A DNA stretch of 64,000 nt from IMG/VR virus record IMGVR_UViG_3300018495_000103. The stretch is one strand, 5' to 3'. This DNA comes from a virus. Below the pieces are notes generated by a model. It was not told where the DNA came from, searched no databases, and was given only the letters and a program-made list of their open reading frames with translations. The translations under genes were made by a program, and so were the position numbers. The stretch's first letter is position 1, and every line of letters begins with the position of its first letter. Shown in pieces: positions 55,263 to 56,153 of this stretch.

Positions 55263-56153
55263 TTACATTCCTTCCTCTATATAAATTACTTTATCAACAT
55301 ATTTGCGGTCCTCACCTTTGAGAATCGGCATATCGTAGTCAATACCGGTTTCACGAGTCCAGGCAGTGCCACGCTTCCAACGAGTTGGAAAATCGTTCCA
55401 GTTGATACCTTTTTGCTCGTGGAGCATATCTTGGATTACGCTACAAGAGCAACCCTGGAGCTTACTGTGAGAGAAGAATGCCTGACCAACCATCTGAATG
55501 GAGTTGCGGGTTGCGTCAAGCTGGCGCCAGTAAATCAGATTACAGGCTTCCTCTTTGGGAATGTTGAACACGCGAGAGTCGAACATAGCACCAATAGATG
55601 CTTTCTCGCAGTAAAGACTATATAGCTTATCCTGCTGCTCCCACCATTCGGGGTCAGTGTGACGAGGGTCGCTCCACTGACGGCTACGCCAAGTACCAAC
55701 TTCCTCGGCAAAATATTTGTTGAACGCCATGGTTGCCATAGAAGCAGAGATAGAACACATCTTCTGTACTTCATAATCGAACCAGGCACTGGTATCGAGA
55801 GTCTGGTAGTCAATCAACAGGAGAGTGATTTCGTCAGACTGGGTGTAACCGAAGACACAACCCTGGATATTTCTACACAGATGTTCCATGGTTTTTACCA
55901 TCGCATTTCCCAGCACTTTATCGAAAGGCTTTTGGAAGCCACGAGTGAAAGTGTGGAAGGCTTTACCGTCGAGGCGAATTGCGACGGGCATTCGTCTCAC
56001 CAAACGGGTTTTCGGCACCTGCTCGTAGAAAGTTTTCATACGAGTGCCAAGAGCATCATTCACTGGCATTTTTTCTCTTCTCCTTCCAAGCTGCACAGTA
56101 GTGTGTAGGTTTTTCATATTTGCGGCTTCTCTTACAATAGCATTTTCCTTCAA
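55263..56153 (-). CDS. Thg1-like protein (tRNA 3'-5' nucleotidyltransferase / tRNA-His guanylyltransferase family)
   Basis: VAIRLDGKAFHTF (Thg1 VVRLDGRNFHRF) and FGYTQSDEIT (Thg1 YGQSDEYS) catalytic motifs. Confidence 0.7.
   Translation of the reverse strand: MKENAIVREAANMKNLHTTVQLGRRREKMPVNDALGTRMKTFYEQVPKTRLVRRMPVAIRLDGKAFHTFTRGFQKPFDKVLGNAMVKTMEHLCRNIQGCVFGYTQSDEITLLLIDYQTLDTSAWFDYEVQKMCSISASMATMAFNKYFAEEVGTWRSRQWSDPRHTDPEWWEQQDKLYSLYCEKASIGAMFDSRVFNIPKEEACNLIYWRQLDATRNSIQMVGQAFFSHSKLQGCSCSVIQDMLHEQKGINWNDFPTRWKRGTAWTRETGIDYDMPILKGEDRKYVDKVIYIEEGM

Follow-up and report, generated by a model that had tools for sequence, protein, structure and literature searches.

Introduction

Enzymes of the Thg1 superfamily, which include Thg1 proper (tRNA-His guanylyltransferase) and the Thg1-like proteins (TLPs), adenylylate or guanylylate a 5'-monophosphate and then add nucleoside triphosphates (NTPs) in the 3'-to-5' direction by Watson-Crick pairing (PMC3701042, PMC4820378, PMC6471195). 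The TLP of Bacillus thuringiensis, BtTLP, is a repair enzyme for a broad range of tRNAs and not for tRNA-His alone (PMC3701042). Here we analyze a TLP gene in a 64,000-nucleotide stretch of viral DNA, IMG/VR record IMGVR_UViG_3300018495_000103 (the window), whose product, judging from its residues and its modeled fold, is an intact bacterial-type TLP and not a strict Thg1. The family, the fold, the intact active site, the structure of the operon and the conserved synteny can all be read from the data below; substrate, role in vivo and link to defense we infer, and we lean toward an enzyme that, as part of a phage set for RNA repair, restores 5'-truncated host tRNAs on a template.

Phage members of the superfamily have been discussed before. 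In 2010 a Thg1 copy was described in Pseudomonas phage 201phi2-1, with the suggestion that it serves RNA repair against host defenses (PMC2904730), and comparative work of 2021 placed phage Thg1 in RNA repair, among the nucleotidyltransferases that restore RNA ends (PMC7824862); viruses go unmentioned in the 2019 review of TLPs (PMC6471195). The TLP is matched by 162 GenBank phage records, mostly labeled tRNA-His guanylyltransferase, and the family has its own PHROG, 4717. Its known members come from tailed, often large phages (Bacillus PK-3, FADO and G, Vibrio 1.170.O, Fusobacterium Fnu1, Xanthomonas XacN1); they are at most 55% identical to the protein studied here and lie in different neighborhoods. 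Because phage TLPs have long been annotated and discussed in print, the novelty that a preliminary description of this DNA implied for a phage Thg1 was overstated, and the gene is a well-supported but expected member of an already annotated phage family. What the locus adds is modestly interesting: a conserved phosphoesterase operon, a common promoter class and a hypervariable hairpin.

The window also bears comparison with the RNA-repair sets of other phages. Like the T4-type heal-and-seal pathway (Pnkp plus Rnl1) and the jumbo-phage sets of Iyer et al. 2021, it holds a PNK-like kinase, phosphoesterases, a cREC protein, a Pol-beta-type nucleotidyltransferase and an ATP-dependent RNA ligase, and it matches the counter-defense and RNA-repair repertoire of the jumbo phages (PMC7824862) down to an NAD+ salvage island, NADAR and SIR2. 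Heal-and-seal mends loop breaks, whereas a TLP refills a recessed 5' end on a template; and the candidate repair genes of the window are spread over several operons.

A bacterial-type TLP with an intact active site

The preliminary description placed the gene at 55263-56153. This open reading frame (ORF) is real and lies on the minus strand, where it is the maximal, TTG-started frame of 296 amino acids, and its translation carries AIRLDGKAFHTF and GYTQSDEIT, in keeping with the RLDGKAFHTF and YTQSDEIT motifs reported earlier. The coding sequence itself is shorter, running from 55263 to 56069 on the minus strand, stop codon included, and specifying 268 amino acids rather than 296. We place it there because an ATG at 56069 is preceded, about 10 nucleotides upstream, by the ribosome-binding site GGAAGGAG, because the exact 268-residue product was called as a gene on 20 metagenome contigs, which reach into the 0.2-1 Mb class, and because 39 close homologs share the same initial methionine.

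The assignment to the Thg1/TLP family, which the preliminary description had based on the two motifs and proposed to check with the Pfam profile, was borne out: Thg1 (PF04446) matches over profile positions 3-130 of 130 at 99.3 bits (E 2e-28), well over its cutoff of 29.2. The C-terminal Thg1C profile matches at 18.5 bits, under its cutoff of 26.3, and PHROG 4717 ('tRNA-His guanylyltransferase') at E 3.4e-83. Among solved structures, BtTLP (4KGK/4KGM) is the best sequence match (E 2.5e-52) and an archaeal TLP matches at E 1.1e-10. No greater closeness to Thg1 than to the TLPs was found, the yeast, human and Candida Thg1 sequences each matching at E ~1e-5 against the 2.5e-52 of BtTLP.

A library of 1.8 billion proteins contains 3,970 relatives at E<=1e-10, and from it we drew 108 diverse homologs that were aligned with the phage TLP and BtTLP. 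The first metal-binding carboxylate, Asp34 (codon 55968..55970, minus strand), lies within RLDGKAFHTF, corresponds to D30 of BtTLP and D29 of human THG1, and is an aspartate in 104 of the 108 homologs. Ser78-Asp79-Glu80 (codons 55830..55838, minus strand), within YTQSDEIT, correspond to BtTLP S74/D75/E76 and are kept in 106, 106 and 107 homologs, respectively. The three active-site carboxylates D34, D79 and E80 (human D29/D76/E77) are thus 96-99% conserved, and these acidic residues, on which the preliminary description had staked its family claim, are all intact in the phage protein. The residues for activation of the 5' end and nucleotidyl transfer are retained as well (BtTLP numbering second: E16=E12, R32=R28, K47=K43, S78=S74, R166=R131), as are those that sandwich the purine (T42=T38, L53=L49, M193=M158), and R182 aligns with BtTLP R147. 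The roles of these active-site and NTP-binding residues were worked out in BtTLP (PMC3701042), and every residue that this study gives as important is present in the phage TLP in our alignment. An active site so complete predicts that the protein is catalytically competent.

The eukaryote-type HINNLYN motif, whose histidine stacks on anticodon base G36 and thereby reads the tRNA-His anticodon (PMC6471195), is absent; the aligned segment reads DATRNSIQMVGQ (TRNSIQM), where BtTLP has SKNSISMVAQ (SKNSISM). An AlphaFold2 (AF2) model of moderate quality, built from 40 homologs (pLDDT 70, pTM 0.72), has the palm-plus-fingers fold of solved Thg1/TLP structures. When it was searched with Foldseek, all 32 PDB matches at E<=1e-3 were Thg1 or TLP chains (TM 0.5-0.6), BtTLP again being the best (E 7.6e-20). 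We assign the protein to the bacterial-type TLPs because BtTLP is by far the closest relative of known structure, because the residues of BtTLP are shared, because HINNLYN is replaced and because the only structures matched are Thg1/TLP.

The two enzymes have in common the catalytic carboxylates, the NTP-binding arginines, the activation lysine and serine and the purine-stacking residues. They differ in overall sequence (33-39% identity in structural alignments), in a helical hairpin of 31 residues inserted in the phage TLP after its palm helix, in an 11-residue deletion near its C terminus and in setting, the phage protein being phage-borne and predicted to be co-transcribed with a metallophosphoesterase. 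Eukaryotic Thg1 proteins (human 3OTB, Candida 3WBZ, yeast 5XOX) share with it the superfamily, the fold and the three carboxylates, but identity in structural alignments is 18-20% and the phage TLP lacks HINNLYN. On these grounds it is not expected to be specific for tRNA-His or to add a non-templated G-1; homology points instead to template-dependent, anticodon-independent repair of 5'-truncated tRNAs.

A hypervariable helical hairpin

The insertion is clade-specific. It occupies residues 124-154 (55608..55700, minus strand), following the palm helix and preceding the FD(S/A)R strand that carries R166, and in the alignment it is absent from BtTLP. Among 40 homologs that are 73-92% identical overall to the phage TLP, mean pairwise identity is 0.21 in segment 122-158 and 0.85 elsewhere in the protein, and the length of the insertion segment ranges from 28 to 44 residues. 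AF2 predicts a helical hairpin, with a helix at 98-133 and a return helix at 140-159 (pLDDT ~90).

A diversity-generating retroelement is an unlikely source, because the variants differ by indels and the 64-kb window holds no template-like repeat. The hypervariability may instead reflect relaxed constraint or diversifying selection. GenBank phage TLP matches span about 235-245 residues of the query, and because of these match lengths most GenBank phage TLPs appear to be free of the insertion; the hairpin is the one new detail relative to phage TLPs described earlier.

The TLP operon and a repeated promoter-like element

The gene lies in a compact unit on the minus strand. A predicted promoter (57409..57443) is followed by two tiny ORFs, a metallophosphoesterase gene (MPE_A), an 87-residue ORF, the TLP gene, a 79-residue ORF, a 41-residue ORF and a terminator-like hairpin (54856..54889) that closes the operon, with the next promoter copy immediately after it. 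MPE_A (56300..57040, minus strand), just upstream of the TLP gene, matches Pfam Metallophos (E 9e-6) and PHROG 547 'phosphoesterase' (E 4e-20), and it adjoins the TLP gene in all close relatives. The 87-residue Cys-rich ORF (56056..56319, minus strand) overlaps the TLP start by 14 nucleotides at its end and is called as a gene on contigs L001 and L003; it has no Pfam or PHROG match. The 79-residue product (55017..55256, minus strand), encoded 6 nucleotides downstream of the TLP stop, resembles a zinc-ribbon protein (Zn_ribbon_13, a weak match at E 5.5e-4) and contains a hydrophobic segment. From the bracketing of the unit by one promoter and one hairpin it follows that the TLP is, by prediction, co-transcribed with MPE_A.

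The promoter is one of ten copies of a 35-nucleotide promoter-like element with an extended -10, TTGATTTTT..AAAAAATATGWTATAATATATAT, whose consensus is TTGATTTTT(N3)AAAAA(A/T)TATG(A/T)TATAATATATAT. Ten copies compare with 0 expected in the window, and all are on the minus strand, at sites spanning 16949 to 62318 (for example 57409-57443, 54823-54857, 53600-53634 and 47300-47334). Each of the five copies that we aligned comes after a terminator-like hairpin. The units after the TLP operon hold first the genes for a sigma factor and a gp5.9-like protein and then those from RNase T to the RNA ligase; further copies precede the operons of a second metallophosphoesterase (MPE_B), of the nucleotidyltransferase and of parts of the NAD+ island. 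The element would define a co-regulated set of auxiliary-gene operons, and promoter identity suggests that the TLP is probably co-regulated with the ligase and the NAD+ genes.

Neighboring genes and the phage

That the gene is set in a phage, as the preliminary description held, is confirmed by PHROG matches in the window to a DNA polymerase, Dda-like and DnaB-like helicases, a RecJ-like exonuclease, two subunits of topoisomerase II and an endolysin; an NAD-dependent DNA ligase and PhoH are present too. From 36 to 64 kb every gene is on the minus strand, and all features given below lie on that strand. The RNA ligase and phosphoesterases said to lie nearby were likewise found, the ligase at 50632-52050 and the metallophosphoesterases MPE_A at 56300-57040 and MPE_B at 57919-58809.

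Upstream of the TLP operon, MPE_B (57919..58809), in the preceding operon, matches Pfam Metallophos at E 2e-9 and PHROG 1649 at E 2e-22. Next comes a predicted Pol-beta-type nucleotidyltransferase of 295 amino acids (59284..60171), with a GS...x11...DVD motif and a match to PHROG 388 'nucleotidyltransferase' (E 2.6e-15); it has no Pfam match up to E 10 and no sequence match in the PDB. We considered whether it might be RlaP, the RNA-ligase-associated Pol-beta nucleotidyltransferase. PHROG 388 being the only match, that identity is unsupported, and because no RlaP or other Pfam profile matches we call it simply Pol-beta-type. A cREC_REC cyclic-phosphate-processing receiver protein follows (61452..61811; PF20274, E 3.6e-18), its role having been predicted in PMC7824862, and a DUF2828 protein (63145-63984; PHROG 850 'RNA-binding protein') lies upstream of the module. 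Just past the point where the window ends, contig L001 continues with a GmrSD_N/HNH protein and an EcoRI-type methylase.

Downstream of the TLP operon, a sigma-70-family factor (regions 1.2, 2, 3 and 4) and then a T7 gp5.9-like RecBCD inhibitor (together 53645-54800) form their own operon, between those of the TLP and of RNase T and the ligase. The RNase T/DEDD-type 3'-5' exonuclease (52659..53567) matches Pfam RNase_T at E 8e-17. The ATP-dependent RNA ligase (50632..52050) has an N-terminal OB domain of the DRB0094/PHA02142 type and matches PHROG 968 'RNA ligase' at E 4e-68; in Pfam, PHA02142 OB scores 30.4 bits, above its cutoff, and RNA_ligase 26.5 bits against a cutoff of 27, and TIGR02306 matches at E 6e-18, under its cutoff. 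PDB sequence searches with the RNA ligase, MPE_A and MPE_B returned no match. Beside the ligase, and conserved there in related phages, is an 838-residue protein (47373-49889) without a PHROG match, whose shoulder and repeat domains are those of the major vault protein (E 2e-23 and 1e-8, respectively).

The candidate polynucleotide 5'-kinase (36839..37384, 181 amino acids) matches AAA_33 (E 5e-15), PHROG 505 'polynucleotide kinase' (E 3e-19) and, in the PDB, T4 polynucleotide kinase (E 1.8e-6) and chains of 4gp6/4gp7/4jst/4mde (E 2.7e-8). The last four entries, deposited as 'Metallophosphoesterase', we take to be the Clostridium thermocellum Pnkp kinase domain. The end of the kinase gene overlaps the gene for a metallophosphoesterase that is a candidate for 3'-end healing (36255..36842; Metallophos_2, E 1.3e-9; PHROG 547, E 5e-46), so that 36255-37384 has the makeup of a split Pnkp-like pair. 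This metallophosphoesterase and MPE_A both match PHROG 547, yet by BLASTP (E 0.11) the two are no close paralogs. Together with MPE_B and cREC they are candidate 3'-phosphate or cyclic-phosphate esterases, and the region from 36 to 64 kb holds a further phosphatase. Between kinase and vault-like protein, at 38787-47280, is the NAD+ island, with an NMN adenylyltransferase-like protein, an AAA_28 kinase, NADAR, NadE, NAMPT/NAPRTase, SIR2, YqeY, a phosphoribosyltransferase and an isochorismatase-type hydrolase, which looks like a set of genes to counter NAD+-depleting defenses.

The window is part of a large gut phage, whose host is probably a member of the Clostridia. Megablast of 24 kb of it against GenBank phages gave no match, and we therefore see no close cultured relative. 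The closest relatives of the TLP in genome databases come from Clostridia, at 48-73% identity, many of them in metagenome bins that resemble phage contigs. Isolates with a related TLP belong to Lacrimispora, Roseburia, Robinsoniella, Flavonifractor, Dysosmobacter and Blautia, and on the Roseburia scaffold and the Lacrimispora chromosome the TLP has mobile-element genes as neighbors (GmrSD-like, PcfJ-like, AAA_24, DnaB-like helicase). The same regions of the two isolates (loci L112, 14654-15691 and 17542-18321, and L117, 2233-4389) encode a reverse transcriptase and an ADP-ribosylglycohydrolase, and the GmrSD-like protein there also matches sigma-70 region 2. The taxonomy of these relatives, their mobile-element neighbors and the strong Shine-Dalgarno sites suggest that the host belongs to the Clostridia and that the TLP subfamily is phage-associated.

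Conservation of the neighborhood

We surveyed 87 TLP loci (7 metagenomic and 80 from IMG/VR) over 10 kb on either side of the TLP gene. The order cREC, nucleotidyltransferase, two metallophosphoesterases, TLP, sigma factor, RNase T, RNA ligase and major-vault-protein-like (MVP-like) protein is kept on contigs whose TLPs are identical or 76-80% identical to this one, and the same order from cREC to the MVP-like protein recurs on a 176-kb contig binned as Acutalibacteraceae, with a TLP 69% identical. Synteny persists down to 64-69% TLP identity and, in part, at some loci with TLPs about 60% identical; a homolog of the 295-residue nucleotidyltransferase lies near the TLP in 14 of the 87 loci. A possible functional coupling of the TLP to repair enzymes has a common promoter class and lineage-conserved synteny behind it, but the linkage is absent from most other phage loci with a TLP.

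Elsewhere, in other gut phages, TLPs about 60% identical stand beside an adenylosuccinate-synthetase-like gene (L044 6896-7987) or beside PAPS-reductase-like and radical SAM genes (L011 7105-7890, 11875-12771). The first of these neighbors is possibly of the PurZ type, and all three kinds may belong to base-modification pathways.

tRNA genes in the window and in related phages

What would such an enzyme act on during infection? ARAGORN found no tRNA gene in the 64-kb window, and no Rfam family matched within it; on contigs carrying the identical protein, no tRNA lies within 10 kb of the TLP. tRNA genes occur near the TLP in 9 of 60 related loci scanned, 8 of the 9 having clusters, which in several phages lie 2-10 kb from it, and a wider scan of all loci with the same program found more tRNA-bearing loci. 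The acceptor stems of the 50 distinct tRNAs near related TLP genes are well paired, and positions 1-3 show no systematic mismatch. The complete 88-kb genome of Staphylococcus phage PMBT8 (MK893987.1; loci L092 and L093) has a TLP 40% identical to this one and no tRNA gene, so that here at least the substrate must be host RNA or something other than phage tRNA.

Because neither the window nor PMBT8 has a tRNA gene, host RNA is a likelier substrate than phage tRNA. The preliminary description had also raised the maturation of phage tRNAs, which is the weaker idea given the tRNA-free window, the well-paired tRNAs of relatives and PMBT8. It had proposed, too, a check for tRNAs that need G-1 or 5' repair; the window offers none to check, and the only tRNA-His of the relatives, at 18806-18878 of locus L086, has both G-1 and C73 in its gene, as is usual in bacteria. 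This tRNA-His has two U-U mismatches in its acceptor stem (4:69 and 5:68) and one more in the T stem.

Discussion

We propose that the phage TLP would use ATP or GTP to activate the 5'-monophosphate of an RNA and then add NTPs 3'-to-5', copying the opposite strand of the duplex, which in a tRNA would be the 3' half of the acceptor stem. In this way it could restore host tRNAs, or some other structured RNA, whose 5' ends are shortened during infection. The metallophosphoesterases, the polynucleotide kinase, cREC, the Pol-beta-type nucleotidyltransferase, the RNase T-like exonuclease and the RNA ligase would be its partners in healing RNA ends, all of them behind the same phage promoter class, with the phosphoesterases and the kinase preparing ends for the TLP. 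Among possible substrates we favor 5'-shortened tRNAs because the chemistry suits recessed 5' duplex ends, not anticodon-loop breaks.

Several observations weigh against this proposal. A homolog of the RNA ligase lies within 10 kb of the TLP in only 11 of the 87 loci, and the largest groups of loci have unrelated neighbors (PAPS reductase, radical SAM, adenylosuccinate synthetase, a DnaB/replication module); with two large groups so placed, we rejected a linkage of TLP and RNA ligase as a general rule. The neighbors of GenBank phage TLPs vary likewise: Prs and NAPRTase in Bacillus PK-3, a COG0617 nucleotidyltransferase 1.3 kb away in Vibrio 1.170.O, and hypothetical proteins. In the window itself the RNA ligase and the kinase sit in other operons, 3 and 18 kb from the TLP, and the window represents 64 kb of a genome that is probably about 200 kb or more, so that phage tRNAs may lie elsewhere. 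The literature that we searched holds no biochemical or genetic data on any phage TLP. The preliminary description suggested that the enzyme counters a nuclease that trims tRNA 5' ends; the suggestion fits the chemistry, but the recent papers on tRNA-targeting defenses that we read describe no such nuclease. The defenses reported there either modify the tRNA 3' end or cut in the anticodon arm, the D-loop, the T-loop, the CCA tail or the acceptor stem on its 3' strand.

The alternative that survives best, although we consider it doubtful, is that the TLP acts on something other than tRNA or by another chemistry, for example extending or 5'-adenylylating other host or phage RNAs with the metallophosphoesterase as partner, while the hairpin binds a partner or an inhibitor. 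The reviews that we read leave the physiological roles of bacterial TLPs open, the TLP shares its operon with a phosphoesterase and with two small Cys-rich proteins that have no assigned function, the hypervariable insertion is so far without explanation, and neighborhoods differ widely among phages. Yet no positive evidence favors any given alternative substrate, and the residues that bind the activating and the incoming NTP are those of a standard TLP.

We regard as unlikely that the enzyme adds or restores G-1 opposite C73 on host or phage tRNA-His and so secures histidylation during infection. G-1 addition gave the family its name, Dictyostelium DdiTLP2 places G-1 opposite C73 on mitochondrial tRNA-His (PMC6471195), and related phages have tRNA arrays, one of them with a tRNA-His. 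However, the anticodon-reading HINNLYN is missing, and the protein is far nearer to BtTLP, with its broad tRNA range, than to Thg1. Bacteria generally encode G-1 in the tRNA-His gene and retain it through RNase P cleavage. The window has no tRNA-His, 59 of the 60 loci scanned have none up to 10 kb from the TLP, and a G-1 supply for phage tRNA-His is further weakened by the sole example found, which encodes both G-1 and C73.

To a more specific version of 5'-end repair we likewise give little credence: the TLP, MPE_A and the zinc-ribbon proteins might form a dedicated system against an undescribed Clostridia defense, or a host 5' exonuclease, that trims acceptor stems, and the hairpin would then be the footprint of an arms race, through escape from a sensor or inhibitor or through a shift in substrate.

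Less probable still is maturation or 5' editing of phage tRNAs as in mitochondria, in which the phage tRNA genes would specify a faulty 5' half of the acceptor stem that is trimmed away and then resynthesized by the TLP. TLPs do perform 5' editing in Dictyostelium mitochondria (PMC6471195), and the tRNA clusters of several related phages lie near their TLP genes. Against this, acceptor stems are normally paired in all 50 distinct tRNAs, and it is on that evidence that we rejected the mitochondrial style of editing; neither the window nor the complete PMBT8 genome has a tRNA gene for it to act on. Finally, that the ORF is decayed or arose by chance has nothing in its favor beyond general possibility and is, from conservation, effectively refuted by a full-length match that keeps all key residues, ~85% identity outside the insertion across 40 homologs, a strong ribosome-binding site, placement in an operon and the presence of the exact protein on 20 contigs.

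With the role of bacterial TLPs left open in the reviews that we read, a phage copy is a practical way in, having an intact active site, a phosphoesterase in its operon and a promoter class in common with a ligase, an exonuclease, a nucleotidyltransferase and NAD+ salvage genes. And if a defense that trims tRNA 5' ends exists, the phage TLP family would point to it.

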